Assembly (NCBI GenBank): GCA_036785375.1
Contig: JAWMAR010000040.1
Location: 9,982,001-10,046,000, forward strand
DNA: 64,000 nucleotides
Reading direction: 5' to 3'
DNA from: Leucoraja ocellata
Lineage: Eukaryota
The notes beneath the pieces are model-generated. The model was not told where the DNA came from, did no database searches, and saw nothing but the letters and a program-made list of their open reading frames with translations. The position numbers were made by a program, and so were the translations under genes. Below, piece by piece: positions 1-22,750 of the stretch (positions are counted from its first letter, which is position 1; each line of letters opens with the position of its first letter).

Positions 1-612
1 CTTGCCAAAGCAGCAAATTTATATATGGCAAATTTTCTTTTTACAAGCAGCAATTCATTGATGAAAATATAGCCTATTTTGGTAATACTGGTGTTGAAAA
101 ACTACTGAGCAGGAAACAGGGAAAATTCCTGTTTGTTGAAGTATTATAGGAATGTTACCTTGCCGAAGTATCATCCAAAACAAAACATCACCTCTAAATG
201 ACAGGATTTCTTGAATACACTCTTCCCTAAATACTGTATTTACATACTCCAGGGATGTGAACACTGCTGCCTGGCTTAACGTTTATTACCCATTTAATCG
301 AAGAAGCAGTCATTTATTTGCATCAGCACAGCACAGGGTAATTGGGAAGTGGTCGTGATCCAATGTGCCATTTGTGCCAGGTGGAAGAGACAATGATTGG
401 CAGAAGAAACAGCCAAGATGTATGCAAATCCTGAAGAAGAATATCTCCAAAGGAGGGATGGTGTCACTGAGCTAACACTGATATACAAATTCAACCTTGA
501 ATAGTTTCTTTAGATGCATTACTTCATTATTATGACCACAAATAAAAGTGTTGCAGTTTTTCAAACCGTAAGCAATGTATTTTTGGATTAACTCTGTGTT
601 TCTTTATTTCAG

Positions 613-1259
613 ACTATGTCAATCAGAATATAGGTGGCACATCTTCAGGAATGCACACCTCAGGACCTGCATTTTCCACCCTCCACAGACTTCGCCGGAA
701 GAGGAAGCCACCCCGGGTGAAGGATCCCTTAGATGACATTCTTCTTAAATTTCTCACAGCGCAGAGGGTAGTGGAGGAACGTTTCCTGCAAATGGAGGAG
801 CGCAGAATGCAACGGGACATGGAACTAGAGGACAGGCGGATGCAACTGGAACAGCGCCGGATGGAGCTGGAACGGGAGCACGAGTACAGAATGTTCACCA
901 TCTTTGCTCAGATGGTGAATGCGCTTCGACACGGTGGCTCCGTGCAGAACTTGGGCTTGGACCTCAGCCGAGTCTTCTCACAGTCCTCTGACCAAGCTAC
1001 TGAAACAGTTGGAAGCCCGAGCTCAGCCTCCACCTCCAAAGATGGTAGCAGTAGAGTGCTCCAGCATCAGAGCAAACCTTTACCAAATGGATTGAGAGAT
1101 GTTACAACTCATGCAGAATTGAATCCAACATTCCAGCACCTTCAGTCAAGTATTTATTTATCGAAAAGAGGAAACGAAATTAAGAATTTTTTTGGAATAT
1201 TTCAGAAAGATTCTCCTGCGCATCACGCAGATAAGTACGATGAAGACAAAAACCCGAAT
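613..1259 (+). CDS. ACCS: ACCS-like gene, first exon visible in the window (phase 1 start, so further exons lie upstream): basic patch, E/R/M-rich coiled coil, linker, then start of the ACCS domain
   Basis: tttcag| acceptor at 611-612 and |gtgagt donor at 1260. Open frame encodes RRKRK...EERRMQRDMELEDRRMQLEQRRMELEREHE...LSKRGNEIK..DKYDEDKNPN, which matches the ACCS N-terminal motif (LSxRG...YDEDKNPxG). Confidence 0.88.
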
Positions 1260-2190
1260 GTGAGTCTATTAAGCTGTGTTAAATAACCAAGTGTAGGTGT
1301 GAATTACTACTTTAGTTTGGGCATTTGTATTCAATCACTTTCTGTTTGGGATATGTTAGCTATGTAATTTAAATCTATATCCAATTTCAGATTGGTTAAT
1401 ATATTTTACCAGGGTTTTTAAGACACAGTAAGAAGAATCTATTTAAGAGACTTTAGGTCAAAGTGAAAAATTAATCTGCACACATAAAGCTGTCCAAATG
1501 TAGCAAAATCTTTAAAATGTTAATATTAAGTGGAGATGGTGGAAAATTGTCACACAATTGTCTTAAGATATTCATGGGCTTGGGTTAACTTACCTTGCAG
1601 TTTGGTACATATGAAAAATGTTGTAGACTTGATCCTTTTAACATTATGAACATTATGAATATTGTACATTAAATTTCACGTTTGGTGTGGGCACTACTCT
1701 GCACACAGGTTTATTGTCTATACATAGCTTTCTATCCACAGGAGATGAAATGTTGGATTCTGGTGCAAAAAGCAAATTGCTGAAGGAATTCAGTGAGTCA
1801 GGCAACCGTTTTGGGTGATGTATGACTGTATCAGGACTGATGCAGGGTTGTGACCCAAAACGTTGACTTTCCCTTTGCCTGTACAGATTCTGCCGGACCC
1901 GCTGAGTTCCACCAGCAGTTTGTTATTTGCACCATTCTGGATCACTGCACTTACCCACGGAAAGTTCTTACAGGAGCTTTATTGGTGGTTGTTAAAGTTG
2001 CTTCTATTTCTCTGCAGTGTTGATTTTTGATCACTTTGTAATACATTATCAAGCATATTTAATCTTCATTCCAATGCAGTCAATAAGAAAGTTTACAAAT
2101 CACGTCGATTAAATTTGAGTCAATTTTAATCTTCATTGTACCTGTACTAAGAAATAATTTCATTATAATCTTCATTATACTAAGAATATC

Positions 2191-2430
2191 ACACAGAGAG
2201 TTGTGAATTTTTGGAATTCACTGCCTCAGAAGGCAGTGGAGGCCGATTCACTGAATGAATTCTAAAGAGAGTTAGATGGAGCTCTTAGGGCTAGCGGAAT
2301 CAAGGGTTATGGGGAGAAGGCAGGAACGGGGTACTGATTGTGGATGATCAGCCATGATCACATTGAATGGTGGTGCTGGCTCGAAGGGCCGAATGGCCTA
2401 CTCCTGCACCTATTGTCTATGTATCTATGT
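2191..2430 (+). mobile_element. CR1 3' end
   Basis: cagagagttgtgaat...ggcctactcctgcacctattgtctatgt tail shared with other CR1 copies in the window. Confidence 0.85.
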
Positions 2431-3024
2431 AAATATTGATAATTGATGGGATGATGAATATTTTTTTGCTGTTTTTAAAACTGAAGTAAACAGACATCTA
2501 AAAGCTCTTTCTGACATGCAAGTGTATTAATCGAATGTTTTAATAGGCATGTTAATCTTACATTTACCTAATCTATGGGAGGATGTTGCCTTTGGTCATT
2601 ATGTGCCAGGAACAATGTCCTTGGTTTTTCATTTCCTTTGGTCTTCCTGGAAATCATTGTATGATTCATATTTGCTGCGTGGCTGATGTACAGACGAGAA
2701 GAGTATTTTCTCTCCGTTCCATTCTCATAAATCAGCAAAACCTGCGGATTTCAGTAAGCTGGAAAACTCATCTCCAGCAATATCTATGTTGTTTTAAATA
2801 CAGTTTGTTGGGTGTAAATAATGTAACTATTAATGTTACGAAGCATAATCAGTGAAGATTCAGAAAGGCCTTCCACATGCTTTAAATTAAATTTGACTTT
2901 GATGGTAGAATTGGAGCCACCTAACACTGATATTGTAGGACAAATTGCAAAGTATGTTTGCATATAATTTACTTTTCTTCAGATGTATGTCATTATATTT
3001 GATTTACTTTCATCTTTGTTCCAG

Positions 3025-3084
3025 GGCATTATTAATCTGGGAACCAGTGAAAACAAGCTGTGCTTTGATCTTCTTTCCAAAAGG
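3025..3084 (+). CDS. ACCS: ACCS exon GIINLGTSENKLCFDLLSKR
   Basis: ccag|...|gtatgt, 60 nt. Hallmark ACS/ACCS motif GIINLGTSENKL. Confidence 0.96.
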
Positions 3085-3440
3085 GTATGTCCATTTGTAC
3101 ACTTTTATATCATTCAAAGAATGATTTAAATGCGCTTCCTAAATATTACTTACATTGTTCAACTTTTTCCTATGCTAATGTTTAAAGCAATTTAAAGCAA
3201 TAATGTTTGCAAATGAATTTCATGCTTTCGACAAAAGTTCCTATATTCCATTTCTTCAGAAGATTTATGGTTGTCCTTCCGTTTCATGTCCTGAATCTTT
3301 CATATAAAACTCTAAATTTCCAAATTAACTCACAACAAAGTTTAAACCATTTTCATAACTGACTTGTAAATTTATAGTTATTAATTGATTAACAAGTTTT
3401 AAGCACGCTCAATTGAACGGTTGATTGCTCCTTTTTGCAG

Positions 3441-3511
3441 GTGATGCAGACTGACATAATACAGATGGACCTGCCACTCTTGGAGTGTCCAGACTGGAAT
3501 GGACACGAGTT
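3441..3511 (+). CDS. ACCS: ACCS exon VMQTDIIQMDLPLLECPDWNGHE
   Basis: tgcag|...|gtaagt, 71 nt, phase consistent. Aligns to the LLQYxDWxGH motif. Confidence 0.92.
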
Positions 3512-3999
3512 GTAAGTACTGTGTGATTTTAATTAGTAGTTTATTGATATTACATCACTTTAATTTGAATGTGCATCCACGAACATATACTGTCAAAAAT
3601 CTGACTAAATGTTCTGGGTTAATATTTCAACGCATAACATTAGAGATGTTCTGTTGTTTCAGTTTAGAAATTAAAATGAAATCTAGAGCGACCCAAGGAA
3701 CTGCAGACTCTGGTTTACACAAAAAGACACAAAATGCTGGAGTAACTCAGTGGGCCAGGTAGCATCTTTGGAGAACATAGATAGATCACGTTTCAGGTCA
3801 GGACCCTTCCTCAAACTGATTCTGGTGGGGGAGGGAAAGCTCGATGAGAAGTGGGGGAAAGACAAAGCTTGCAGGTGAAGTGAAGGGGGGGGGGGAGGTT
3901 AACTGGCAGATAGTTGGACAAAGACCACAGGTGAAAAGACAAAAAGTGTGAAATCAGGATAGAAGAGTGCAAATTGTGAAGCCAGAGCAAGGAATATGA

Positions 4000-4795
4000 A
4001 GCAGGTAGGATCCTCAGACCTCAGTAATGAGAGATTGAAGAGGTCTGCAAAAAACACCAGCCAGTTGGTCCGCGCATGTTTTGATAAGGAACCAGATACT
4101 TCATCAGTTCCAGACACTTTCTGAGGGTTCACCCTCATGAAGGATCTTCTGACATCAACCTTGGTGACTGAGATTACAATATCAGCGGGGGGCTATGGGA
4201 GCCTTGAGTATTCAATATTCTCCCTATGAAAGTGTGCATAGAATACATTAAGCTTGTCCAGGAGTAATGCCTCATTGTCCCTTGAGCTGCCACTTGGTTT
4301 TGCCTTGTAGCACGTAATGGTGTACAAGCCACAGCTGCTGAATATCTGTCTCATCCTCTAATTTAGAGCAGAAGCCCCTTTTAGCCTTTTTGATGGCCTT
4401 ATTGAGATCATACCTGGACTCGTATGAATCTACATCAACAGACTTGATTGCCCGAGATGTGGTCCTAAGAAGATTGCAGACCTCCCGTTTCATCCAATGC
4501 TTCGGGTTTGGGAAACACTTGGATGGTTTTGGTGGGAACACATCCCTACGTACATTTCCTTATGAAGTCAGTAACAACTGTGGTGTATTTGTTCAGGTCA
4601 GTTGCTGTGTCCATAAATATTGTGCAGTCTACCAACTCAAAGCAATCCCACTGTCGTTCCTTTGCCTTCCCTGACCAGCTTAGGGCAGTCCACACATCTG
4701 GGGCTGCGGCCTTCAGTCGCTGCCGATATGCAAGAAGAGGTACAGGCCAGGGGTCAGATTTTCCAAAGTGTGGGCAAGGAATGTAGCGATGGCAT
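4000..4795 (-). mobile_element. Rex1/Babar-type LINE fragment
   Basis: FPNPKHWM, RYDLNKAIKKAKR and RVNPQKVSGTD...ADLFNLSL peptides. Confidence 0.75.
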
Positions 4796-4805
4796 ATCTG
4801 ATATA

Positions 4806-6534
4806 TCTTGTATACTCTGGAATTTAGAAGGATGAGAGGGTATCTTATTGAAACATATACGATTATTAAGGGATTGGACACGCTAGAGGCAGGAAACATG
4901 TTCCCAGTTGGGGGAGTCCAGAACCAGGGGCCACAGTTTGAGAATAAGGGGTAGGCCATTTAGAACGGAGATGAGGAAAAACCTTTTCACCCAGAGAGTT
5001 GTGAATCTGTGGAATTTACTGCAGTGTGGAAGGCAGTGGAGGCCAATTCTCTGGATTCTTTCAAGAGAGAGATAGATAGAACTCTTAAAGGATGAATGAA
5101 TGATTGAATGGATGAACGAATGAATGAATGAATAGTTTTATTTCAGTCCTACATTAAAAAGAACAAAACTTTACAATCTGTGTGAATATGAACCAACACT
5201 GTGTCCATTTCACACAACGTTCACATAATCAATGACTGAAAAATAGGCTGAAGCCACAAAGCTTATTTTTTCCTATCCTATACAATCCATAAGATAACCC
5301 GGAATATCAGCATTACAAAGGAAAGAAAAAAAATAAAATTTACTCTAAATTGTAATCCTTACTTATTTTACATTTTAATCATTTTACATTATAATCCTTA
5401 ATTATTTTACATTTTAAGGCTTTTTTGAAACTCAACGGAGAGATACAAAATTTCAACTCATCACTAAGCCCGTTCCATAATTTGACTCCCAAAACTGAGA
5501 CACATCTATATTTTACATTGGTTCTCACTTTACATGTTTGAAAAATACACAACCCCCTTAAATTATAATGTCCTTTTCTTATTTAATTTATTTTTGAATA
5601 CTAACAGAAAGGCTTTTATTCCTAACTCGGAAAAGTATTTCTAATGTGTTTACATGCACAATATCCAAAAATGTTAAGACTTTATGAATAATGGATTTGT
5701 AGTTTCACGGTAAGAAGCTTTATGTATTATTCTAATAGCTCTTTTCTGGAGTTTAATTATAGAGTCTATATTTGTTTTATATACATTTCCCCAAACTTCA
5801 ACACAATATGATGTATATGGCATTATAAACGAGCAATACAATATGTACAAACACCTTATTCAACAGATCCTTTGTTTTGTAAAGAATAGCAATGGATTTA
5901 GATAATTTTCATTTGATGTATTCTATATGTGGCTTCCAACAAAGTTTACGATCTATAATCACTCCCAGGAATTTTATTTGGTATACTCTTTCAATTTCAA
6001 CTCCATTTAAATTCAATTTTATTTCACAATTAACCCTGTCACCACCAAACACCATAAATGTTGTTTTATTTTCATTTAGGGATAACCATATAAACCATAA
6101 TACAATTACAGCATGGAAACAGGCCAACTCGGCCCTTCTAGTCCGTGCCGAACACTTATTCTCCCCTAGTCCCATCTACCTGCACTCAGACCATAACCCT
6201 CCATTCCTTTCCCGTCCATATACCTATCCAATTTATTTTTAAATTATTAAATTTCAAACCATTTTTTTAGCACTATCATTTCTCTTTCTACTGTTTTCAA
6301 TAGTTCTTTTATTATCATTCCCTGAACAAAATACATTTTTATCATCCACAAACGTAACAAACTTCAACGTATTAGATAGTTTACAAATATCATTTAAAGA
6401 TACCGGAGTCAAGGGATACGGAGAGAAGGCAAGAACGGGGTACTGAATGTGGATGATCAGCCATGATCACAGTGAATGGCGGTACTAGCTCGAAGTGCCG
6501 AATGGCCTACTCCTGCACCTATTGTCTATTGTCT
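4806..6534 (+). mobile_element. CR1 3' fragment split by a nested insertion (CR1 parts ~4806-5090 and ~6396-6534)
   Basis: The two halves join across TTAAAG to give the same sequence as the intact CR1 end at ~7786-7841. Confidence 0.8.
5091..6395 (-). mobile_element. AT-rich L2-group (Crack/Daphne-like) LINE 3' fragment, itself containing a CR1 tail at ~6085-6240
   Basis: LSLNENKT..M.F...IERV.QIKFLGVIID.KL.WKPHI peptide. AATAAA plus (TTCA)n tail on the minus strand. Confidence 0.75.
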
Positions 6535-6544
6535 AATGATGGTG

Positions 6545-7841
6545 GAGGAAATGGAATTATAGACCAGTTAGCCTGACATCGGTGGTGGGGAAGATGCTGG
6601 AGTCAATTATAAAAGATGAAATAGCGGCACATTTGGATAGCAGTAACAGGATCTGAGTCAGCATGGATTTACGAAGGGGAAATCATGCTTGACTAATCTT
6701 CTGGAATTTTTTGAGGATGTAACTAGGAAAATGGACAAGGGAGAGGCAGTGGATGTAGTATACCTGGACTTTCAGAAAGCATTTGATAAGCATAGGAGAT
6801 TAGTGGGCAAAATTAGGGCACATGGAATTGGGGGTAGAGTGCTGACATGGATAGAAAATTGGTTGGCAGACATGAAACAAAGAGTAGGGATTAACAGGTC
6901 CCTTTCAGAATGGCAAGCAGTGACTAGTGGGGTATCGCAAGGCTCGGTGCTGGGACAGCAGCTATTTACAATATGCATCAATGATTTAGATGAAGGGATT
7001 CAAAGTAACATTAGCAAATTTGCAGATGACACAGAGCTGGGTGGCAGTGTGAACTGTGAGGAGGATCCTATGAGAATGCAGGGTGACTTGGACAGGTTGG
7101 GTGAGTGGGCAGATACATGGCAGATGCAGTTTAATGTGGATAAATTTTGCTTCTTTAGTAGCCAAAACAGGAAGGCAGATTACTATCGAAATGGTGTCAA
7201 GTTGGGAAAAGGGGAAGTTCAACGAGATCTGGGGGTCCTTGTTCATCAGTCAATGAAAGTAAGCATGCAGGTACAGCAGGCAGTGAAGAAAGCAAATGGC
7301 ATGTTGGCCTGTCTAACAAGAGGAATTGAGTATAGGAGCAAAGAGGTCCTTCTGTGGTTGTATAGGGCTCTAGTGAGACCACACTGGAGTATTGTGTGCA
7401 GTTTTGGTCCCCTAATTTGTGGAAGGACATTCATGCTATTGAGGGAGTGCAGTGTAGGTTTACAAGGTTAATTCCCGGGATGGCGGGACTGTCATGTGCT
7501 GAGAGAATGGAGCGGCTGGGCTTGTATACTCTGGAGTTTAGAAGGATGAGAGGCAATCTTATCGAAACATATAAGATTATTAAGGGTTTGGACACGGTAG
7601 AGGCAGGAAACATGTTCCTGATGTTGGGGGAGTCCAGAACCAGGGGCCACAGTTTAAGAATAAGGGGTGAGCCATTTAGAACGGAGATGAGGACACACGT
7701 TTTCTCACAGAGAGTTGTGAGTGTGTGGAATTCTCTGCTTCAGTTTGCCTCGGCCGGTTTTCTGGATACTTTCAAGAGAGAGCTAGATAGGGCTCTTAAA
7801 GATAATGGAGTCAGGGGATATGGGGAGAAGGCAGGAACGGG
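6545..7841 (+). mobile_element. CR1 LINE ORF2 fragment (reverse transcriptase to C-terminus), frameshifted
   Basis: YRPVSLTS, VYLDFQKAFDK, SGVSQGSVLG, FADDT and LEFRRMRG motifs. Confidence 0.95.
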
Positions 7842-8337
7842 ATTAAGAAACATCGGGTGGCACTGTGAGCGGCAGCCTGCAGTTTGTCTGTCATTTCACC
7901 CTTTTTGTTATTTTTAGTGAACCAAAAAGTTTAATCTTGTACACATTGAGTTTCAAAGTTTCATTATTTTTAAGGTTGACTGAAGTAGATAAACTCAACT
8001 GTTAACTTTTTCATTGCTTGACATTTCCTTATCTCTATTAAACCCCGACATTACTCTGGTTCAGAAACTCACCATGTTGCATTTTTCACTCCTTGAAGCC
8101 AGCAACAAAGGATCATGTCACAGTGCTCCAATAATACTAAATAGCCTTACATTTATAAGAAAGAAATATAAGCATTTAAGTAATATTGCTGACACTGTTT
8201 ACTTCTTACTTCTTTTAACCTGATAATTTTGTTAATGTATGTTTTGCTTCAAGCCAGAATTTAAACATGAAGAAATGTGAAAGAAAGAGGTATATTTATC
8301 TATCACCTTTTGTCTTTGCTTTTTTCTGCAACCTCAG

Positions 8338-8407
8338 TCTCAGAGTGGAAGTTGGAAGGTTTTTGACGCATCACTGTAAGGCATCTGTATACATCAAGCC
8401 TGACAAC
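8338..8407 (+). CDS. ACCS: ACCS exon (F)LRVEVGRFLTHHCKASVYIKPDN
   Basis: ctcag|...|gtgagt, 70 nt. Aligns to LREEVAxFL...L.PEN. Confidence 0.92.
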
Positions 8408-9033
8408 GTGAGTAATGGAGTAACCAATATAAAGAAAAAAGGAATATTTGGGCATATTAAATAAATTTTAATAAACTGTGTTACAGAGAATGTGAATGGT
8501 TAATATCACTTCTATCTCTTCATGACATTTTGTGGCAGATCTTTTAATTAGCCTGGTCCAATAGCCTGGTTGAACCTACAAACTAGGAGGAAGAGAATGC
8601 CACTCAGACCCTCGTCTATTCTGCGATTTAATAAAATCATGGCTGATCTGTTCTAACACCAACTCTGCATTCCTGTGTACCTGTGAAAATATTTCAATCT
8701 ACTGCGCCCAGTGTTCCCGATGTGGGCTTTTGTAAATCAGTGAGACCAATTGTAGACTCCGCAACTATTTTGCCAAATGCCACTCTGTCCGCCAATGCCT
8801 ACTAGATCTTCATACCACTTTCACTCCCATTCCCATTCTGATCTTTCTTGCCAGGGCCTCCTCCATTGCCAGAGTGAGGCCAAATGCAAATTGGACGAAC
8901 ACCGCCTTGTATCCCAATTTTGTTTACAGATGGAGTTTGAGTAGGTGTTATTTTTCCTTACAAATGTAATACTTTTACATAAAATACTTTGTAACCAAGA
9001 ATGATGCATTCAATACTTTTGTCATTATTCTAG

Positions 9034-9100
9034 ATAGTGGTGGTTAATGGATGTGGATCTCTCTTTTCCTCATTGTCTGCTGTGCTCTGTGATCCTGGAG
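9034..9100 (+). CDS. ACCS: ACCS exon IVVVNGCGSLFSSLSAVLCDPG
   Basis: ctag|...|gtaggt, 67 nt. Conserved VVxNG..SLF...LCDPG motif. Confidence 0.95.
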
Positions 9101-9696
9101 GTAGGTGAAGGCCGAAACTGTAGTTGTTTATTTGAACAACAAAATAATTGGTTTTGCTTTTCAGTAGGTTAAAGTTGTACTGTGGATGTGATGTTGTTCC
9201 ATGACATTTGACATATCAATATTGTAAAATTACCTTTTAAACTACTGTCAGTGTTTGAAATGGACTTGTAAAAATAAATTAAAAACTCAGTCCCTGATCC
9301 AGAAATAAATATTAAAACTAAAACATATAACAGGATTGAGAGTAACTGTGCTTGCTACAAACAGTATTCAAATGAGTTAGTAACAAAGGGCCACTGAAAC
9401 CCTTGGTTTCTCCACCTCCCCTTTCTCAACCGGTAAACATGCCCATGATTGTTACAGGCTAATCATTGCAGATTCAGGACATTACTGCTAGTATTCCTTG
9501 TTGCCCCAGGATAGCATCTATAATCCAGTTATAAATAGCTGCTTTATCAATGATCCAGGTGGGAAAGTTGAACTATAGTATAGAGATTAAAGCTGCATGT
9601 CTAGGAGGCAGGCCAGACAAGACTTGGGGCAGAAGAGGGAACATGGATGGTCTGAACAGCTAGTTTGCTTCAAAGCAAGAGGCCTTGCAGGTAAGA

Positions 9697-10195
9697 CATA
9701 GAAACATAGAAAATAAGTGCAGGAGTAGGCCGTTCAGCTCTTCGACCCAGCACCGCCATTCAATATGACCATGGCTGATAATCCAAAATCAGCACCCTGT
9801 TCCTGCCTTTTCCCCATACCCCTTGGTTCCGTTAGCCCTAAGAGCTAAATCTAACTCTCTCTTGAAATTATACAGTGAATTGGCCTCCACTGCCTTCTGT
9901 GGCAGAGAATTCCACAGATTCATCACTGTCTGAGTGAAAACGTTTTTCCTCATCGCAGTCCTAAATGGCCTACCCCATATTCTCAAACTGTGATCTCTGG
10001 TTCTGGACTCCCCGAACATTGGGAACATTTTTTCAGCATCTAGCCCGTCCAATCCCTGAAGAATTTTATATGTTTCTGTAAAATATCCTCTCATCCTTCT
10101 AAATTCCAGTGAATACAAGCCCAGTCGACCCATTATTGCATCATATGTCAGTCCTGCCATAACCTGGTGAACCTATGCTGCACTCCCTCGATAGC
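9697..10195 (-). mobile_element. CR1 3' fragment
   Basis: ORF 9789-10160 (LGLYSLEFRRMRG...NLWNSLP) plus CR1 tail. Confidence 0.9.
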
Positions 10196-11063
10196 AAAAG
10201 ACATTGGATGAACTTGGAGCATGAATCGGCACATGGGATTATGATATTATAGCTATCACAGAAATGTGGTTGAGCGATGGACAGGACTGGCAGCTCAATA
10301 TTGCAGGAAACTGATGCTTGCAGCGTGAGAGAGATGGAGGTAATTTAGGAGGGATTCCAGCATTGATCAAAGAGAGGATGTGCCGGGAAACATCCAGCAA
10401 GGCCATTTGGGTAGACCTTAAAAATACAGAAAGAGTGATCACGTTGATGGAATTATACTGTAACCCTGCCCCCTCCCTCTAATAATCAGCAGGAATTAGA
10501 GGAAATATATACAGGGAGTTTGCAGAAGCTGTAGGAACAACAGTTTTGTGATAGTAGATGAGTTTACCTTATTATTGGTTGGAAGCACTTTGGGTTCGAT
10601 GACCATAATTCTGTGTGTTTCAAGATGGTCATGGAAAATGGTTGGACTGGTTCACAAATTAATGGCCTAAATTGTGGGAAGGCTTATTGAAAACAAAACT
10701 TTTCACTGAACCTCATAGCATTTGACAATAATAAACCATTTATCTGCCTGAACTCTTGTCTATAACATTCTATTGTTGAAAGTGCAATTCTGACAGACAT
10801 GATTGATTAGTATCACAAATTGCACTGTGCAATGAGCACGCATATAGTACATCACATTTCTGGGGAAATTTTGATCTTGTTGAACAATGTTATCATTGAC
10901 ACTAATTTATATCCCATATTTGCACCTAAATCAGGATGCTTAGTAGTAAAATAGAATTTTGAATAAAACCACAAATTTGTCTTGTTTTTAAAAAATGTTT
11001 TCATAAACCGGTTTCACTATTCAGCCATAGAACATTGGTTACTTGCAACAAGTGTGCTGATGT

Positions 11064-11128
11064 TTCATTCATACATTCATTCAATCATGCATTCATGCAT
11101 TCATTCATTCATGCATTCATTCATTCAT
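11064..11128. repeat. (TTCA/TGCA)n microsatellite
   Basis: Imperfect tetranucleotide tandem repeat. Confidence 0.8.
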
Positions 11129-11228
11129 AAAATTGTTTTGTTCAATAGTAAAGGACTATTTAAATTCTAAGTTGCTGGCTATTTACTAAAATGACTTTAA
11201 TGTAACTGTTTTCCTTCTGTGCTGACAG

Positions 11229-11326
11229 ATAGAATTCTTCTACCCACACCATACTATGGTGTTATCAAGGATGATATTTTTCTCTACAGCAAAGTCAAAC
11301 CATTGCATGTGCATTTGGAGAGCAAA
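11229..11326 (+). CDS. ACCS: ACCS exon (D)RILLPTPYYGVIKDDIFLYSKVKPLHVHLESK
   Basis: acag|...|gtaaga, 98 nt. PTPYYG motif. Confidence 0.95.
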
Positions 11327-11884
11327 GTAAGAGTAAAAACAACTGAACATTTGACGTTGTGGTTCCTTGTATTTAGTAGCTGCTTATTGTCAAACCTGTC
11401 CAGATCTTAAGCTTCTGTTTGGGTGAATGCAAAGTATTCAAGCAAGGTAGATCCGTACTGTAATTAAAGAACCAACATTGTGTTTAGAACTAGTATTTGA
11501 GAGAGTATTTTTGTTCAAGATGTGTGTTGAACATATCATTTCAATGTAATTCGCTAAAACACCCTTGAATTGAATCAGAATGCATACATCAGCCTCTTAT
11601 ATGCATAACATGATTCCTTTTCATTTATGGGTCCTGCCACACCCGTCATAATGGGGAAAGTGTCTTTTTAAATTCTCCTCATATCCCAATGTTCACAGTT
11701 CTCCAACTATGCAAACTGCACATACATATAGTTTTGCCAAAGGAGAGTTGGATGAGCCATTAGTATTGGCTTCAGTTTGCATGTAATGTTAATTATATAG
11801 TTGAGAAAGGTGGAAATTGATATCATAGAGAATTATAAGTGTAAACCCAAGTATTGCTGTGTATTTGCCTTGGCCTTGTTTTAG

Positions 11885-11962
11885 GTGACTGATGGTGACA
11901 CACGTCCATTTCAACTTACAGTGGGAAAGCTGAAAAAATCAATGGAAGCTGCAAAGCTCCAG
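11885..11962 (+). CDS. ACCS: ACCS exon VTDGDTRPFQLTVGKLKKSMEAAKLQ
   Basis: ttag|...|gtgaat, 78 nt. TRPFQLTV motif. Confidence 0.94.
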
Positions 11963-12266
11963 GTGAATGATTCAGAAATGTTCATCGTTTTGATCGTAGA
12001 TAGTAATTTTTCAGTTTCGGTTTCAGTTTAGATTATTGTCATTTGTACCGAGGTACAGTGAAAGGCTTTTGTTGCGATAAATTACAACAATGAAAGAGGA
12101 AAATATGTTTAGAAAAACAAACTAATTGAACTGAACCTTTTCTTTCTCAGCTCCAGGTCAGAATCCCCATTGAGCTGAATGGGAATTTTAGTGCTAAGTC
12201 AGGTTATTACATTAAGGGTTAGACAATAGCAATCTCATAGTTTATTTAAAATATATTCCACAATTT

Positions 12267-12563
12267 GGGCAGCACTGTGGCGCAGCAGTAGAGTTGCTGA
12301 CTTCCAGCGCCAGGGGCCCGGGTTCAATCCTAACTACAGGTGCTTGTCTACAGAGTTTGTACGTTCTCCTCGTGATCTGCGTGGGTTTTCTCCAAAATCT
12401 TTGGTTTCCTCCCATACTCCATAGATGTACAGGTTTGTATGTAAATCGGCTTGGTATAAATGTAAATTGTCCCTAATGTGTGTAGGATAGTGTTAATGTG
12501 CGGGAATCGCTGGTCGGTGCCGACCCGATGAGTTGAAGAGCCTGTTTCCGAGCTGTATCTCTA
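12267..12563 (+). mobile_element. tRNA-derived V-SINE (HE1-like)
   Basis: A box TGGCGCAGCAG, B box GGTTCAATCC, V-domain (gagtttgtacgttctcc...gtgggttttctcc) and CR1-like tail. Confidence 0.8.
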
Positions 12564-12805
12564 AACTATAAATTAAATTTAGGGTTAGGTGAAAGCAAGG
12601 TGGAAACACTTGTAAATTAGAATGAGAAATTGAAGTAACTGACACAAAAATAATTACATGTTTAATGATGCACTTTGTTTTTGGGTATTATAATTACCAT
12701 TCATGACTCCAAAAATGACTCTTAAAATCTTCACTCTAATTATACTAATCTTTCATTGTAAGGTAGTTTTGCAATAACCCTAACAATTTTTCTGTGTATT
12801 CACAG

Positions 12806-12906
12806 GGTAAGAAGGTCACAGCCATGATTCTAACAAACCCTCACAATCCCCTGGGTGATATTTATTCAGCAACAGAAATGAAAGAATTTCTTGAGTTTGC
12901 TAAAAG
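12806..12906 (+). CDS. ACCS: ACCS exon GKKVTAMILTNPHNPLGDIYSATEMKEFLEFAK
   Basis: cacag|...|gtgaga, 101 nt. NPxNPLG aminotransferase class I motif. Confidence 0.96.
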
Positions 12907-13949
12907 GTGAGACTTTCGCAGTTCCAGAATGAAAAATTGTATGTTTTTACTTTGTTACATTTCCATGAAAACTTTAAAACTATATGTTCAATAAAACAAT
13001 CAAATGCTCCTGCTGATGTCCGCTTAGGTGTTCCGATCATCCAATTTAGAAATTAAATGACCTTAAATATCTTTCATATATATCCTTATGTACATCTCAT
13101 TTCCGTCCTTGTAATTCCACTTGAGACTTAAAGTGGCCTTCAGTCTGAATCTTTATCACAGCTAACATATTTCCTTGGGAGGATGGAATATCATTCATTG
13201 TTTGTTTGTGTAGATGTACTTTATTTTGGCATTAAAAATATAATTTCGTATTTCTACGCATCCTGTTGAGAAATCACTCTCTTGTTTCTGTGTGTATAGA
13301 TTATTAAGGCTTGCTGATACAATTGAGGTTATATACTTGTATGTTTGAAGGCAAAATGGATGATTCTGAAGTTTGATTCCAAAGCATGGTTCAAGTTCTT
13401 TTATTCTATTTTGTGCTACTATATTTTGGATCAATTTAACTAGCAGAAAAATGTCATCAATGACAAGAATACCCAACTGGTTCATTTTAACCTATACAGT
13501 AGCATGGATCAGTAGGATATACTTTGTGCATACACTTTCCATCAGATTTTTTAAAAGTAGACTATCCCAACATTTAAGAAACAGTTAGACAGGTACATGG
13601 ATAGGACAGGTTTGTAGGGATAAGGACCAAATGCTGGCAGGTCCATAGCTGGGACATGTTGGCCGGTGTGGGCAAGTTGAGCCGAAGGGCTTGTTTCCAC
13701 ACTGTATCACTCTATGACGCTATGAATCTATGACTAGTGTCATAGGATCCAAAAAAGACTGCTGATTCTAATATTTTAGTTGAGGCTACTTTTTCTTGCC
13801 AAAGATCATGTTGGTTCTACCATATCGCTATGCTATTAATATGCAAAACGACTGGTTACCTTGTGGGGGAAAAAATCAGAACCTTTGAATTGATTGAGAT
13901 TTATGAATAAGTTATTTAGATTCTGTTTTTTGTCCCTCTGGTGATGTAG

Positions 13950-14039
13950 ATACAAATTGCATGTAATTGTGGATGAAGTGTACATGCTTTCGGTATTTGA
14001 TGACGTAAACTCATTCCAAAGTATCCTCAGCTTTAACAA
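13950..14039 (+). CDS. ACCS: ACCS exon (R)YKLHVIVDEVYMLSVFDDVNSFQSILSFN
   Basis: gtag|...|gtgagt, 90 nt. LHVIVDEVY motif containing the Asp that contacts the PLP pyridine nitrogen. Confidence 0.96.
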
Positions 14040-14419
14040 GTGAGTCTTACTTTAATATTAAATATTGTACGTCTCTTAATTATTTTGCTGCTTTTACAAT
14101 TATTGGTGTGCTTGAATTTTATATTATCTTCTGTCAGAAACCCATTGCCTTTTTTAAAGAGCCTCTGAGGTGAGTTATTGAGGAACATAGATGCCCACTT
14201 GCTCTCTCTACGGGGTGAGGCAGACACACACCCACCTCTGCCATCCACCCTCCCCAAATCCCCACCCCACCTAATCACAGTAACTGGCCCACAACTGTTT
14301 CCTCAGTCCTTTCAATTGTTCCTTAAACACAAATTGTCCTGCCTTCACCCCTAACTCCAGCCCTAGCAAATGTCAGGTATCAAGAGGTATTTCTGGTGCA
14401 AATTCATCTCCCTCATCTA

Positions 14420-17400
14420 TGTAAGAAATTACGGCTTCAGCATGTAGATCGAAACAAACACAGGTTTTCAGTACACACTGTTGCCAGTGTAGGTATTCCT
14501 TATTTTTAAAAGTGCACTGTGCATACTCACACATATTCACGAGACTGATAAGATATAGACTATATCACACAAAATAAATCTTACCATGAAAGTACTCAGT
14601 TCTTAAAGTTACAGTTATAATTATATACACTACACTGCTCTCCCCTTAGAAAGTAAAATAACTTGTAAATTAGACAAACTAATAAAGAATAATTTTATAA
14701 TGTTAATCTGACGACTGGTTTACGTACTCTTTCTGATCTCCTGAGTGCTTTAGGGGGTGTGTCATGTTGTGGTTCTAAAGGAAAGTCAAGTTCAGCATCA
14801 TTTACCCTTATCTCTACTTTCTTTGGAGATTCTGATTTTATATCTGAACTTGGAATAATACCACAAATCTACTTCTTCGACTGTGCTTTGCTCTTGCTGG
14901 GATCGTATGGTTTATGTGTACACTTCTAACATGTCCTCCAATTTCTACCAACTACCTCCTGGTACCATACACTTCAACTACTATTCCCACATCCCATTTT
15001 TTGCATTGTAAGGGGGGGCTGAGAACATGAACCTAATCATGGGTATCAAACCTACATCCTTTTGGACTTCCACCATAATGACGTTTCAGATCAGATTGTT
15101 TTTGTTCAACCTTAGGAGATAAGTTAGGTAGAGCCAAACTCTGTCTATTTCTGAGCCTTCTTTTCATTAGTTCAGCTGGCGATAGATTGTGGCATGGTAC
15201 GATATTTCAGTAAGAAACTAGCTAGCCGCTGTGACATACTGAATTTTGAATTCCCTTCAAGAACTTGTTTCTTGAGAGCTCCTTTGACTATCCTGACTGA
15301 CCTTTCAGCTGCGCCGTTAGATGCCGGACGGTAAGTTGGCACTAAGGTATGCTTGATACCATTTAGCTACATGAAAGTTTGGAACGGTGCAGCACGAAAT
15401 TGGGGGCCGTTGTCAGAGACAAGCTCTTCAGGTAATCCATGACAAGCAAAGATAGACCGCAATGTGTATATTGTTATTTCTGTTGTTGTGTTTGTACCCA
15501 TATGTACCACCTCAATCCACTTTGAGTGACTATCTACCAAAACAAGAAAATTATTATTCCCGGGTTCACAAAAATCCACATGAATCCTCTGAAGAGGTCA
15601 AGTAGGCCAAGACCATGTTTGCAAAGGGGTTTGGGAAGGCCTACCTGTACAACTCTGACAAGTGTTACATTTGCTTGCCATTGCTTCTCTGTCAATGTCC
15701 AATCCTGGCCAATACATGCAACCTCTGGCTGTAGACCTCATTTCCACAGTACCTGTGTGTTCACGATGGAGTTCTTTAAGCAATCTTTGTCTTAACCAAT
15801 TACTACTCTGTGACCCCCATTTAAAACACCCTTGCTTACATGACAGTTCATGTTGTTTATTGTGATAAGGTTTTAGGTGATTAGTACTTGGTTTTATTTC
15901 TGACCATCCACACAAAGTTTGTTCGTATACTGGCTTTAGCACTGTGTCCTTTTGAGTTTCAGCAGCAATTTCAGCTGCTGTGACTGTAAAGGTAGAAATT
16001 GGAGGATGTGTTAGAAGTGTGCACATAAACCATATGATCCCAGCTAGGGATGAACCGGTATAAGAGCAAATCATAGACAAAGAAGTAGATGTAAGACTTT
16101 GCTATTATTCCAAAGTCTGACAGATCGACTTCTTCGTCTATGCTTTGCTCTTGTACCGGTTCATCCTTTGCTGGGATCATATGATTTATGTGCACACTTC
16201 TAACACGTCCTCCAATACTTCTCCAGATTACGTTTTCAGTTGAACGCTTGTTTCTGTGATAGGCATATTGCTAAACTTGGATTCATAAGGTGTCTTTGCT
16301 TATAATTGTGCAATCAGTAGCGGTATCAATACACATAGTATTGATGTATGGATTGTTCACTTTGACCCTTGTCTGAAAGTCTTCATCTCCAGACCGACCG
16401 TTCATAGTATAAATGACGTACAGTCCAAGTTCATTACTCTCTGGGTGTTCTTCAAGGTTATGAATCCCATGCATGTGGTTTTCTCCAGCCTTTTGTTTAG
16501 CTTTATCATGTGATGGCACTACATGCTGCTGCAATATGGTCTTTCTTTTGATAGTTGTGGCACTTTGATAGTGAACTGGCACTTATTTGCTTCATGTTGA
16601 CCATTGCATCAATAGCACATAGCTGCGCATTTCCCAGAACTTTCCTGTGAAGGCCTTTTCCCAGTCTTGTCATGCTTGTGTTTTGGAACTACCTTTTGAC
16701 TGTTGACTGTGCCAGTATGTGTTGGTCAAAACTCATGTGCACTTTGACATGCCATCTCCATGGCCAAAGCAGTTTTAGAAACATAGACATAGAAACATAG
16801 AAATTAGGTGCAGGAGTAGGCCATTCGGCCCTTCGAGCTTGCACCGCCATTCAATATGATCATGGCTGATCATCCAACTCAGTATCCCGTACCTGCCTTC
16901 TCTCCATACCCTCTGATCCCCTTAGCCACAAGGGCCACATCTAACTCCCTCTTAAATATAGCCAATGAACTGGCCTCGACTACCCTCTGCGGCAGAGAGT
17001 TCCAGAGACTCACCACTCTGCATGCCAAATCAAAGGTAAGGGTTGGTGTGTCATTAATTTTGATTGGATTCGCTCATCCAGCATTCCACTTACAAATCTA
17101 TCATGCAAAGCTCGATCCAGAAATGTCGCAAAATTGCAGTGTAGAGACTACTTCTTCAGTGAGATAATGTTCTCACACACAGTCTCACCAGACTTCTGAT
17201 TTCTTGTGTGAAATTTGTAACTTTCTGCGATCTCTTGGGGTTGAAGTGAGCATCAGGTTTTGCAAGAACAGTCTCAAATGAAACATTCCTTGCTTTCTCT
17301 GGGGCTAGGATGTTAATGAGAGCTTCATAATATTTTGTTCTTGGATGGCCTTGTTTTGTGCTCTTACCTGCACTTGATCATCATCCTCTGTTTCTTCAGC

Positions 17401-17976
17401 TTCAATAATGTAATTTGCAAAAAAACCTTTCCATTCGCTCACAGTACGAGGTAAAGGTTTCACAGTTCTTGTCGAAAGTCCCTAGTCGGCCTATGTGTCC
17501 CGAGGATGCCATCTTGCCCCCTGGGCACAAGACAAAGATAGCCTGACAAACTCTAGACGATTTGTACAGCTGCTGTTTTAAACTACAGTCCCTTGCATAG
17601 AAGGATCTGTGGCCCCTCGTGTCCAGTTCACAAACAACTGCGACACAGCTTCATATTTGCTGTTTAAAACGTTAAACAATGCTGCATATTGCAAAACAAT
17701 CCTGCATTGTATTCGGAGGTTGAGTTCACGAACTCTATCTGATCCTCGTCGCCATCGTAAGATACTGAATTACGGTTTCAGCAGGTAGATAGAAACAAGC
17801 ACAGGTTTTCAGTACACACTGTTGCCAGTGTAGGTCTTCCTTATTTTGCAAAAGTGCACTGTGCATACTCACACATATTCACGAGACTGATAAGATATAG
17901 AATATTTCACATGACACAAATAATACCATTATAGTACTCAGTTCTTAAAGTTATAGTTACCTTTATATACATTACA
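14420..17976 (-). mobile_element. Ty3/Gypsy (Mag-like) LTR retrotransposon, internally deleted and degenerate, in an ACCS intron
   Basis: LTRs 14420-14634 and 17756-17976. 5-bp TSD ATCTA at 14415-14419 and 17977-17981. PBS TGGCGACGAGGATC (17754-17741, tRNA-Ser type). PPT at 14635-14647. Remnants of gag (~17510 leftwards), protease (IDTATD), and integrase with HHCC and VDSHSKW...VSDNGPQF. Confidence 0.93.
16777..17020 (-). mobile_element. CR1 LINE 3' end nested in the Gypsy gag
   Basis: CR1 3' UTR with (ATAGAAAC)-type tail. It splits the gag peptide LTFDLAC / KTALAMEMA. Confidence 0.85.
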
Positions 17977-18079
17977 ATCTAAGAAGAGTAGAATGTGCCA
18001 GGGACATAGGTGTGGTAATCATTACACTCAGTAAAGAACCATCTGATTTTGTAATTGTCTCCCTGTCAGCTGCCAGAGG

Positions 18080-18345
18080 GTAATGCCCCTGTCCCACTTA
18101 GGAAACCTGAACGGAAACCTCTGGAGACTTTGCTCCCCATGCGGTTCCCGGAGGTTTTTGTCAGTCTCCCTAATGGTCGAAAGTGGTTTCCGCTTCTTCT
18201 ATGTTCCAGCGATTATTTCAAAAAATTCAATACTTGCTGCGACTAAAAATAGGTTGCCGTTTTAAAAATCAGTAGTTTTTTAGTCGAAGCCGGTTGCAAT
18301 GCTAGTTGAAGATGGTTGCCGGAGGTTGCAGGTAGTGCAAGGTAA
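18080..18345. mobile_element. Probable non-autonomous DNA transposon fragment
   Basis: Starts GCCCCTGTCCCACTT with internal GGAAACC/GGTTGCC subrepeats and CpG-rich content. Family assignment uncertain. Confidence 0.4.
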
Positions 18346-18533
18346 GCACTAAAATGCATAGTCAACCTACAAGTTCAAGTAATAGCAGCCTTTGTTTTTT
18401 TCACCTGATAATTCAAAACACATTTATGTTATCTCTTGCATAATTTTACCTTGTCCACATTAGTATACATTGTGTGAGCTTTTTAAAATATTTATATGTA
18501 CAATATTGATGGCTGTCTGGTATTGTTTTTCAG

Positions 18534-18579
18534 GCTCCCTGATCCACAGAGAACTCATATTATGTGGGGAATTAGAAAG
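18534..18579 (+). CDS. ACCS: ACCS exon (K)LPDPQRTHIMWGIRK, ending in the PLP Schiff-base lysine
   Basis: ttcag|...|gtaaat, 46 nt. LPDPQRTH motif. Confidence 0.95.
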
Positions 18580-21379
18580 GTAAATGCATCCACCGTGGCA
18601 TCTGCGTCAACGCGAGAGATAATGTGATGTTAAAGTTCAGAGGTCATAGGAGCAGAATTAAGCCATTCATCCCATTGAGTCTACCCCACCATTCATTCAT
18701 CTGATGTGCATTTCCCTCTCAATCACATTCTCCTGCCTTCTCTCTGTAACCTTTAACACCCTTACTAATCAAAAATATGTCAATCTCTGCTTTAAAAATG
18801 CCCAAAGCCTTGGCTTCCACAGCCATCTGAGGCAATGATTTACCACCCTCTAAATAAAGAAATTTCTAATAAAAAAAATCCTCTTCATCTAATGGTACGT
18901 CCTTCTATTCTGATGCTGTGCCTTCTGGTCCTAGACTCTCCCACTAGTAGAAACATATTCTCACATCCACTCTCTGCATGCCTTTCATTAAAACAGCAAT
19001 GTAGAATGTGTTAAAGTAGCAAAATGAAACAGTGAATTGGCACTTTTACATGTTGTGCCGGAAAATGGTAACATGCTGGTTTGCATCTCCCATGATGAGC
19101 CTTGTCACTACTGAATTAATCTGGGGATATATTAAGAAGAGCCATTCGATTGAACTGCTGTGGCGCCGCCCAGAGCTAATACCTTACTATATTTTGTAGG
19201 AGGTGCAGGGGACTTGATGGATTCCTAAATATCTTAATCCAGAAGGAGGCATTTAGCCTTGTGGTTATATCAGTTTAAAAACAAACTTTTGATGTTATTC
19301 CTAGTTTTCATTTTTTTGGTTCCTTTTATAAATCCACTCATGATTTCTGTCTTCATAATTCTTTCAGACACACAATTCCAAGTCCTTACCACTCTTTGGG
19401 TAAATATTTTTTCCTCAGCTCTCCTCTAATCCACCCACAACCTATGCTTCCTTGTAATTAGTCTCTCAGCTAAGGGAACAGGTCCTTCCTTTTCGCACGA
19501 GCTAAGCCTCTCATGAGTTTATATCTAAAGCTACAGGAGAATCATTTTAACAAAAATAGAAACTCTGTTCAATTTATCTCTGTACTTATTTAGTTTATTC
19601 CAGGAAGGAAGGAATTTGTGAAAAATCCTCTAATCAAGAAGTGATTAGTACTGAAATAGAAGGTTGAGCTGTAGGAAAATATTGTAAAGCATGAACACTT
19701 ATCTTGAAGTTAGCTGAATGACTCAGTCGATGCTATAATTCACTGATGTTACCTTCCTTTGATGGTCATAAGCCCTGATCAATGAATGTTTAAAATAAAG
19801 AATAGCTAAAACTTTCTTAATAGTAGCATTCTTTCTATCAAATGTGATTAAAGCAGAATTTGTTAACTCCCTTCTGTGGGAATCAGTTAAATACTTGCAA
19901 AGAGATAGATACTGGAAAACACAAAGGAAACAGATGTTAAATCATTTCCAAAAAGAAGTGAGCCAAATTGGCTTATTAGGCTGTTTTATTGTTGTGATCC
20001 TTTTATGAAGTTCTGCAGTAAAGGCTACATAATCTTGATGATTATCATGCATTTCCGAGTAGCAGTGAAAATATTGTGAGAACTGGAGGACAGGGTCCCT
20101 GCTGACTAAAGTGCTGCAAGGTAATCCAAGGCCAACATTGAATCTTTAAAGGATTGATAACAAGGCCAGCATTTGAAGCTCAGCCTTGAGTTCTTGAGTG
20201 GAGATAGTGATTATTGTGCTATGTGAAGCAAGCTGGTGAAATTTCTGAATGTTAAACGCCACAGAATGTTGATGGTGGGGAAACTGGCAATGGTAATTCC
20301 ATTGAATGTCAGGAGTATGTGACCAGACTTTTTGTTTAACGTGGTAATTATTTGCTACTGCTGTGGCGTGAATGTGTCCTGCTGCTTATCCATGCCTGGA
20401 TGTTGTCTAGGTCTTGCTGATGCAAGCATGGACTTCTTCATGTGGTGAGGAATTGTGGATGCAATTGGACATTATGAAATCATTAGTGAATGTCCCCACT
20501 TCCAACCTGTAGAAGGAAGGTGATTGATGAAGCAGCTGAAGATAGTTGGGCCTTAGACACTGCCTCAAGGAACTCCTACAGTATCCATGGGCCTTGGGAT
20601 GAGATGATTGACTTCCAACAACCACAGTCATCTTTGATGCAAGGTTTGCTCAGCAGTTATCAATGGCTTAGTATGTCGTCATCAAAAATTTGCTTGGCCT
20701 TCACATCAAAACTTGCAGGGTATTCTACAGTGCGGATAAATCTAAAGTGGTTTAACTTCAGATATCCTTTGATTCTGTTGAAGAAAGCAACAAAAAAGAA
20801 GCCTGTAGTAAGACATTGAATCAGTAAAAAGTTCAAATTTTGCATAACACAAAACCATGATCAGTGTCGGTTTCATAGATTAATGAAGTAAAATGTTGGT
20901 GATTTCACCATTATCACCAATTATGCAAAATCTGGACCATTCAGTCATAAGAATCTGCCTGAGCTTCAGATCACTGATATTTTATGTATCTAAAATAGCA
21001 TATACTGATCATCAGAGGCGGAATAACCCTTAAATTTACCTTTGTGTAACTATTGTCTTTGTAATCTGAAATTGGAGATAAACTTGTTCCAAGCCACCAG
21101 CAACACATTACAATGAATGTATACTGCGGATTATGTTGCATGAGCAAAATCTATTTCATCAGATCAAGAGTATTTAATTGTCTTATGTACTGGCAAGGAA
21201 CTGGACTGGCAAACTGGCAAGGAACAAGTACTGGCAACTTTACAGGTGCCTTAATGCAACAACACATAGATATACAAGAATCAATTATACAATAAATTTC
21301 ATTATTATTAATACAAAGTAACAAACCACAATAGAGCAAAACCAAAGTACATAATACAAACAAAATAAAGTCCATAATG

Positions 21380-21690
21380 CATCATAGTTACTGAGAAAGG
21401 ATTGCGTTTAGGGTGCTGCGGCGTTCAAGAGCTAGATTATTGCTAGGAAAAAGTTGTTCTTGAACCTGAAGGTCACGGTTTTTAGACTCCTGTACATTCC
21501 TCCAGATGGAAGTAGTGAGATGAGAGTGTGACCAGGGTTGTGTTGGTCTTTCGTGATATGAGCTATCTTTTTGAGACAGTGCTCTTGAGATCCCTTCGAT
21601 GGTGGAGAGGTCAGTGCCCATGATGAACTGGGAATGTCCACCACTTTCTGCAGCTTCCTTCGTTCCTGGGCATTCGAAATATCAAACCGG
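21380..21690 (-). mobile_element. Rex1-type LINE 3' fragment
   Basis: KIAHITKDQHNPGHTLISLLPSGGMYRSLK..RFKNNFF peptide. Confidence 0.75.
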
Positions 21691-21844
21691 TGATGTCTCG
21701 GATTTGTATCTGATTTCCAGGGACCGTGTTGCTTGGCCTTGCTTGCTTGACAATTTGGGATAAAATTGCATGCCAAAAACAAATTGAGAAGCAGTGAGCA
21801 ATATCAGGAGATAATTAAATGAATCGTGTTTTTTTGTTGTCTAG

Positions 21845-21986
21845 GATTTTACAGCCAGTGGACTTCACGTAGGTACTCTACACACTGAGAATGCTGATGT
21901 TATTAGTGCCCTTGGTCAACTGTCACACTTCCATGGTGTTCCAGCTGCCACACAACATATGGTAGCACAGTTACTGAGAGACCAAG
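21845..21986 (+). CDS. ACCS: ACCS exon DFTASGLHVGTLHTENADV...AQLLRDQ
   Basis: ctag|...|gtaaga, 142 nt. Aligns to DFGxSGLRxGTLYTEN...AQLLRD. Confidence 0.94.
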
Positions 21987-22089
21987 GTAAGAATGCCTTG
22001 TGGAGAAAGCCCCATGTTCCAGCAGTACATAGAAAGTATATGTTCATTAATCAATGAATTGGTAGTGCTTCACATGAAATACATTGCTT

Positions 22090-22750
22090 TGCCTGGATTG
22101 GAAAGCTAGGCTGATTGCAATAGAGGTGACCATTTCACCAAACACATGCTCAGTCTGGCAAGGTTTGCTGGATCTCCCAGTTGTTTACCATTTTAACTCC
22201 CCTTCCCAGTCATATACCATCTTTTCTGTTCTGGGCCTCCCCAATTCCAGAGCGAGGTCACTTGCAAACCAGAGGAACAGCACCTCGTATTCCATGAAAA
22301 GCTTACAACCCAACGGAATGGATATTGCATTATCCAAATTTTTAGTAACACCACATTTTCCCCATCTCACTTTCCTGGGCCTGCCCCACACCTGGTGTGT
22401 ACCCATTTCTCCCATTATCCTACCCCTCTTTCCCCCCTTACCCCTGTCCCTTTCAACCTTTATCCCTTTCTCTGGATTTACATTTCACTCCTCTCATTAA
22501 CCAGTACCCTTTTATCTCAACCCCTTGTCACTAATTCCACTCATCTGCCGATCAAAACCCCCCTCACCTGTATCCACGTATCAATTGCCAGATTTTGCCC
22601 CACCCTCCAACTCTTTTCCCCCTACTACAATCGGTCTGAAGGTCTCGATCCGGAGTTACTTATCCATCCCTTCCACAGATGCTGCATGGCCTGCTGAGTT
22701 CCTCCAGTACTTTGTCTTTGTTCATGATTTCAGCATTTGCAGTTCCTAGT
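22090..22750 (+). mobile_element. Degenerate Penelope-like element 3' part (GIY-YIG C-terminus plus pLTR)
   Basis: LPVVYHFNSPSQS...LQPNGMDI..S.F peptide followed by the same pLTR sequence as the element at 34067. Confidence 0.75.

Follow-up and report, generated by a model that had tools for sequence, protein, structure and literature searches.

The locus examined here raises the question of whether a vertebrate ACC-synthase-like gene (ACCS) encodes a nuclear regulator that senses a metabolite. The window, i.e., the whole stretch of 64,000 nucleotides of ray-like fish DNA that was analysed, contains an exon in which a basic patch and an E/R-rich coiled coil appeared to run into the start of ACCS. 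From this exon and from a seemingly degenerate active site, the original prediction derived an animal analogue of the bacterial MocR/GabR factors.

The exon has an AG acceptor before 613, begins in phase 1, and is followed by a GT donor at 1260. No stop interrupts its frame 3, which contains DPLDDILLKF from 723, EREHEYRMF at 870-896, and the first ACCS motif, LSKRGN, from 1158. The reading of patch, coil, and ACCS start as parts of one exon in one frame was thus borne out. A protein search with this exon gave 116 matches at E<=0.001, all longer proteins and most of them with both PF13837 and PF00155, and since they extend from sharks to marsupials, the reading frame is not a product of chance; a Pfam scan of the exon alone gave no match. 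A second copy on contig C806, with 0 differences in 647 bases and likewise without a stop, is probably the other haplotype. The phase-1 start had been taken to imply coding sequence upstream, and the upstream coding exon was located outside the window (Table 1). Scanning the upstream exons for Myb_DNA-bind_4 (PF13837) revealed this domain at residues 12-99 (E 2e-20), spliced in frame to the exon at 613. Its score was 73.5 bits against a curated cut-off of 27. Six full-length proteins were scanned with Pfam; all six carried PF13837, and none a GntR domain.

The joint between the Myb/SANT exon and the exon at 613 was found in assembled contigs of three of four runs, belonging to three studies; the runs are from relatives, and their RNA origin is guessed. 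One contig of 4,408 bases (X4), from a relative's run of equally guessed RNA origin, extends from a 5' non-coding exon through both front exons. The clean GT..AG skip of 3,051 bases in the contigs indicates a spliced product; no listed run with the locus is recorded as RNA. The raw-read run X22, of which about 6% was sampled, had no depth on either front exon, and run X5 did not cover them. The top search match, P0001 (902 aa), maps to the locus with residues 1-220 on the upstream exon and the remainder on 14 GT-AG exons of the window, the last of which ends at 27658. It differs from the window translation in 3 of 682 residues and contains the whole ORF. The order of domains in the 902 residues is Myb/SANT, linker, basic patch, coiled coil, linker, and ACC-synthase-like PLP fold.

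In some databases the locus is represented by Myb/SANT-only or ACCS-only models, as would be expected if two adjacent genes, each giving mainly a separate protein, were joined by read-through or by gene-prediction error. However, coil and ACCS start share one exon without a stop both here and in the C806 copy, the full-length ORF is found both in assembled contigs and in roughly a hundred records, and many of the short Myb/SANT-only matches are just as long as the first exon. We regard the joining of two separate genes as very improbable, and the Myb/SANT-ACCS fusion as practically certain to be real.

Table 1. Positions of the features of the fused ACCS gene, in window coordinates unless a contig is named.
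Feature	Position	Strand	Remarks
Myb/SANT exon, residues 1-220	G000:C40:9978901-9979561, outside window		begins 3,100 bases before window position 1
3' part of 3,051-base phase-1 intron between Myb/SANT exon and exon at 613	1..612	+	GT..AG joint in contigs
Putatively chimeric coding exon, residues 221-436	613..1259	+	basic patch, likely coiled-coil helix, poorly conserved linker, presumed ancestral first coding exon of ACCS
Candidate start ATG (M234), in frame	651..653	+	for isoforms skipping the Myb/SANT exon
Basic patch RRKRKPPRVK, residues 248-257	693..722	+	NLS-like by sequence
Predicted single long helix, residues 258-326, E/R-rich, ends EREHEYRMF	723..929	+	AlphaFold helix 259-326, pLDDT about 71-88
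ACC-synthase-like fold-type-I PLP domain, residues about 403-822	1158..25925	+	PF00155; 1IAX; exon map
PLP-domain exons, first half	1158-1259, 3025-3084, 3441-3511, 8338-8407, 9034-9100, 11229-11326	+	
PLP-domain exons, middle	11885-11962, 12806-12906, 13950-14039, 18534-18579	+	
PLP-domain exons, end	21845-21986, 24126-24268, 25772-25925	+	last residues extend into final exon
R662 and K663 (PLP Schiff-base lysine, retained)	18574..18579	+	position 662 is S/T/G in other aligned sequences
H671, replacing arginine conserved in ACS and GabR-type sites	21866..21868	+	alignment
S797, replacing conserved GWFR arginine	25886..25888	+	alignment
Last coding exon with conserved C-terminal helical motif, residues about 860-902	27378..27658	+	TAA 27656-27658

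Three further observations were made on the minus strand of the window. Remains of a broken LTR-retrotransposon integrase (PF00665, PF17921) lie inside an ACCS intron at 15370-16101. Three open stretches with hydrophobic segments at 36769-41240 may be exons of a small membrane-protein gene; none had a Pfam match over cut-off. Two LIM-domain exons at 49402-51839 belong to a LIM-only gene, LMO2-like in sequence, which is the downstream neighbour of ACCS.

AlphaFold (66 sequences) modelled a helical N-terminal domain at 17-101, one helix of 68 residues at 259-326, and the ACS fold, with an overall pTM of 0.50; the linkers at 105-254 and 332-420 were mostly below a pLDDT of 50. The long helix is likely a coiled coil. 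The solved sequence nearest to the N-terminal domain was the plant trihelix DNA-binding protein GT-1 (2EBI), a weak match over 48 residues (E 0.0017). Searches with a single-sequence model of the Myb/SANT domain retrieved no Myb-type fold: Foldseek gave no match at E<=0.001, and the best hits of VIA-align (Z up to 7.4) were unrelated, generic helical bundles. At least four K/R within six residues of the basic patch were present in 60 of 61 aligned sequences having the coil. The linker encoded by the Myb/SANT exon carries IKCE, a SUMO-consensus-like motif, and the pattern [ILV]KxE, a putative SUMO site, is kept in 55 of 56 fused sequences.

Among 433 stored proteins, 332 had the enzyme domain, and 109 of these also had Myb/SANT, while 50 had the coil without Myb/SANT; these counts were made with profiles from our own alignment, on records which are not independent of each other. 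Fused proteins were found in sharks, chimaera, sturgeon, paddlefish, gar, bowfin, teleosts, coelacanth, lungfish, and amphibians, as well as in turtles, crocodilians, birds, squamates, monotremes, and marsupials. The survey of ACCS architecture across vertebrates that had been proposed thus gave a fusion extending from sharks to marsupials, and Myb/SANT, coil, and C-terminal motif in none of 30 placental ACCS/ACCSL protein records. Myb/SANT and coil were likewise absent from the protein records of sea lamprey (521 aa) and hagfish (a partial model), and from those of amphioxus, hemichordate, echinoderm, nemertean, and chiton. A different arrangement, with four to eight tandem Myb_DNA-bind_4 domains fused to TINF2_N or KRAB, was seen in P0253 (from tarpon), P0260, P0284, P0324, P0331, P0261, and P0312.

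Transcript models that lack the Myb/SANT exon exist, and many of them keep the basic patch, the coil, and the enzyme. Judging from the 50 records with coil and enzyme alone, such short isoforms may be common. Isoforms of shark and frog in the databases start inside the exon homologous to 613-1259, and M234 is a possible start for them in the present gene. The original prediction had depended in part on the coil being retained in transcripts. A coil match is missing from 3 of the 109 fused records, so this part stood; it is the Myb/SANT exon that some models skip.

Two trees were computed: one of 85 rows, by quick search and without bootstrap, and a second, careful one of 23 rows. The enzyme domain falls in the same clade as placental ACCS (clade support 100/99), as expected for the vertebrate ACCS orthologue, and groups with that of the stingray Hemitrygon (100/100). 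Lamprey lies inside the orthologue clade (100/99), its exact place within it being unsettled in the 23-row tree. Placentals nest within therian mammals inside the fused clade (100/98, 23-row tree), and the absence of the front module from their protein records is therefore best read as a loss. Synteny with EXT2 was not seen on contig C40 (PF09258, none among 32 matches), so orthology of ACCS rests on the trees.

The source of the front module was sought in the same genome, where PF13837 occurs at five loci, of which four are present twice. Two standalone, two-exon Myb/SANT-coil genes, at G000:C36:7375023-7380241 (minus strand) and at G000:C40:2866400 to about 2876700 (plus strand), are laid out as the front end of ACCS: Myb/SANT, a KEE motif, a phase-1 intron, a basic patch, and a coil ending REHE. 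Their splice sites were read from sequence, not from RNA. The coil profile scored 38.2 and 21.4 bits on them against shuffle maxima of 12.3 and 12.4, and 0 of 1000 shuffles reached either score. The view that an E/R-rich coil of this kind is a C-terminal module of Myb/SANT proteins was in this way substantiated within the genome. Two more single-locus PF13837 exons, G000:C69:5849418-5849600 and G000:C368:917788-917982, are each interrupted within the domain.

The genome also contains an unfused ACCS paralogue (G000:C186:2932249-2954650, minus strand), with the lysine and both arginines of the active site intact; similar unfused paralogues occur in lungfish and paddlefish records. The first coding exon of the C186 paralogue opens immediately upstream of the corresponding SARG motif and closes at the corresponding NPQ|GT. 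Taken together with the standalone genes, these bounds suggest that the exon at 613 is a chimera of the last exon of a Myb/SANT gene and the first coding exon of ACCS. In the stem of jawed vertebrates, a two-exon Myb/SANT-coiled-coil gene would have come to sit directly upstream of ACCS, and read-through would then have joined its last exon to the first coding exon of ACCS. The nearest relatives of the Myb/SANT domain that were found are host genes, with 34-45 identities in about 90 residues. Around PF13359 transposases, 14 sampled loci gave no match to the Myb/SANT profile as a sign of a Harbinger donor, and one weak coil score (E 0.69). There is one fused locus, with its second copy on C806, and none of the 150 listed PF13359 matches lies on contig C40. 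At least 150 matches to Harbinger/ISL2EU-type transposases (PF13359) occur in the genome, on many contigs and many with long open frames.

In the enzyme half, Aminotran_1_2 (PF00155) was matched at residues 438-804 (E 2e-52). The sequence of tomato ACS2 (1IAX) was matched at E 3e-58, and the model resembled this structure with a target-normalised TM of 0.89. Active-site residues were mapped via alignment to tomato ACS2, together with the residues listed for AtACS7 in PMC8580319. All 53 aligned sequences have the Schiff-base lysine K663. Both arginines, which contact the phosphate of the cofactor and the carboxylate of the substrate, are retained by 50 of the 53, and by 44 of 47 non-placental sequences. 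The exceptions are the present protein and that of the stingray Hemitrygon, the only ones with R671H and R797S, and one short whale-shark model (K, Q). The claim of a degenerate active site in ACCS consequently failed, and general degeneracy was rejected; by the alignment, loss of both arginines appears to be essentially ray-specific. Further changes in this protein are Y472C and S662R. The glutamine needed for ACC synthesis, Q98 of AtACS7 according to PMC8580319, is absent here, its equivalent being P473. This absence fits the annotation of ACCS as a vinylglycine deaminase, which was the sole ACCS activity that we found cited (PMC12363045). The PLP domain of most vertebrates has likely retained the binding of PLP and of an amino acid, and its activity is likely that of a lyase or deaminase and not of an ACC synthase.

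The C-terminal helical motif (window 27527-27655) had no Pfam match. It is conserved from nemertean and amphioxus to marsupials, scores also in a protein of Pigoraptor, and is absent from placental records and from the C186 paralogue. We considered it as a part of the captured module and rejected this, since lamprey, amphioxus, echinoderm, and nemertean proteins have it too; it predates the fusion.

The most conserved part of the protein is the Myb/SANT region. Residues 1-104 have 103/104 identities with sharks, 96/104 with canary, and 92/104 with Tasmanian devil; the enzyme domain has 82%, 263/422 (62%), and 237/422 (56%), respectively. Residues 241-328 have 87/88 identities with sixgill-type shark and chimaera, and 62/88 with canary. 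Between the two front exons and those of a close relative, 21 synonymous and 2 non-synonymous codon changes were counted, a sign of purifying selection. In this ray-like fish none of 81 conserved positions of the Myb/SANT domain and none of 22 in the coil is changed. At conserved enzyme positions, the two rays have the most changes of all, namely 17 and 18 of 159, where the median is 2. Because the reference is rich in tetrapods, and other cartilaginous fish have 6-13 changes at those 159 positions, a part of this excess reflects the reference.

The front module might also be a handle for nuclear import or protein interaction, and not a reader of DNA, placing the PLP enzyme in a nuclear complex. 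Many isoform models that drop the Myb/SANT exon but keep basic patch, coil, and enzyme would agree with this, as would the Harbinger Myb-like proteins, which import the transposase, and NAIF1, both of which bring partners into the nucleus (PMC9392472). Such a handle would not by itself account for the strong constraint on Myb/SANT, which is invariant in rays where the enzyme site erodes, and we consider it quite unlikely. Nuclear DNA binding by the fused protein is in our judgement fairly probable from its sequence; human Myb/SANT proteins have yielded DNA motifs in the Codebook study (PMC11601247).

Our preferred reading is that ACCS of this ray-like fish is a nuclear, likely dimeric, DNA-binding regulator carrying a loosely tethered PLP enzyme domain, and that it arose by read-through capture; to this reading as a whole we give an even chance. 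The basic patch would import the protein into the nucleus, coil and PLP domain would dimerise it, the paired Myb/SANT domains would bind DNA, and the conserved SUMO-type motif would recruit co-regulators. As far as sequences tell, the two halves can be parted: in rays the ligand site erodes behind an intact front module, and in placentals the enzyme has persisted by itself. The tethered regulator is favoured over a GabR-like sensor on account of the long variable linkers, the independent loss of the two halves, and the dependence of GabR on residues that rays have lost.

The sensor deserves consideration nevertheless. Jawed vertebrates may have evolved, independently of bacteria, a one-component metabolite sensor of MocR/GabR type by capture of a transposon-type trihelix gene onto a PLP enzyme. 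An amino acid bound as external aldimine, without turnover, would switch DNA binding or output, and rays would be ligand-blind. The domain order is that of the MocR factors (PMC5320631), and this part of the claimed analogy stood. The lysine and two arginines with which GabR senses GABA (PMC11669113) are kept in most non-placental sequences, as counted above; the fusion is retained across all jawed-vertebrate classes sampled; and vinylglycine deamination is the one activity cited. Against it, the domains are separated by long, poorly conserved linkers of low model confidence, and the lysine and arginines are conserved just as well in proteins without the fusion, from lamprey, invertebrates, and placentals, so that they do not single out sensing. 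Moreover, the ray lost both arginines with its Myb/SANT domain and coil unchanged at conserved positions. The other part of the analogy, in which a degenerate site spoke for sensing, did not survive: as GabR by that account needs both arginines, their erosion in the ray counts against sensing and not for it. Since the erosion is essentially ray-specific, a role as enzyme or as sensor is conceivable for most vertebrate orthologues, and sensing is least likely for the ray protein. We therefore hold the sensor to be doubtful. If it were true, transcription would be coupled directly to vitamin B6 or amino-acid status in fish, amphibians, reptiles, birds, monotremes, and marsupials, with a ligand-blind version in rays and a bare enzyme in placental mammals.

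ACCS has been an orphan, and human ACCS is annotated as a non-functional homologue of the plant enzyme. The present data make the human protein a truncated exception. In the ancestral jawed-vertebrate form a domain of DNA-binding type is more strongly constrained than the enzyme, and this hints at a role in the nucleus. Natural mutants are at hand in rays (site eroded), placentals (module lost), and lamprey (never fused, on current records). The architecture can be seen in automatic annotation, with the proteins named only ACC-synthase-like, and in three ESM Atlas clusters of 55-125 members each, of which 87-97% carry PF13837. A full-text literature search, with subscription journals and bioRxiv supplements outside its reach, found no paper describing the fusion, and a search for transcription factors sensing PLP or amino acids listed bacterial examples only. 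We know of no direct PLP- or amino-acid-sensing transcription factor of such design in animals.

Several known systems resemble parts of this protein. The plant trihelix factors (GT-1, GT-2/GTL1) share the PF13837 domain, and GT-1 is the best PDB sequence match, a weak one over a short stretch; a chordate cluster that bears the automatic name 'GTL1-like' is similar to the first 330 residues (0.91). The plant trihelix family has a C-terminal coiled coil, as is predicted for the ACCS front module, but ACCS has an enzyme domain attached. Human and placental ACCS and ACCSL and plant ACC synthase have an orthologous or homologous PLP domain; the placental proteins differ by lacking Myb/SANT, coil, and C-terminal motif, and the plant enzyme by the glutamine that aligns with P473. 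Unlike the Harbinger-derived genes MSANTD1-4 and NAIF1 (PMC9392472), the module in ACCS is fused to a metabolic enzyme domain, and since placental records lack it, a survey starting from human genes would overlook it; the main text and one supplement of that paper do not mention ACCS. The fusion is accordingly a candidate Myb/SANT capture of gnathostome age, invisible to human-centred surveys. With MocR/GabR of the bacterial GntR family, ACCS shares an N-terminal DNA-binding-type domain followed by a C-terminal fold-type-I aminotransferase-like domain with the PLP lysine kept. It differs in having Myb/SANT in place of a winged helix, an extra coiled coil, about 300 residues between the domains, and a PLP domain that is ACS-like and not MocR-type, and in that the phosphate- and carboxylate-binding arginines are lost in this genome. 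It is also of independent vertebrate origin, and control by a ligand would be a putative feature of it. Fused ACCS is thus not a member of the MocR family, but a variant both of Myb/SANT capture and of the joining of a DNA-binding domain to a PLP fold.
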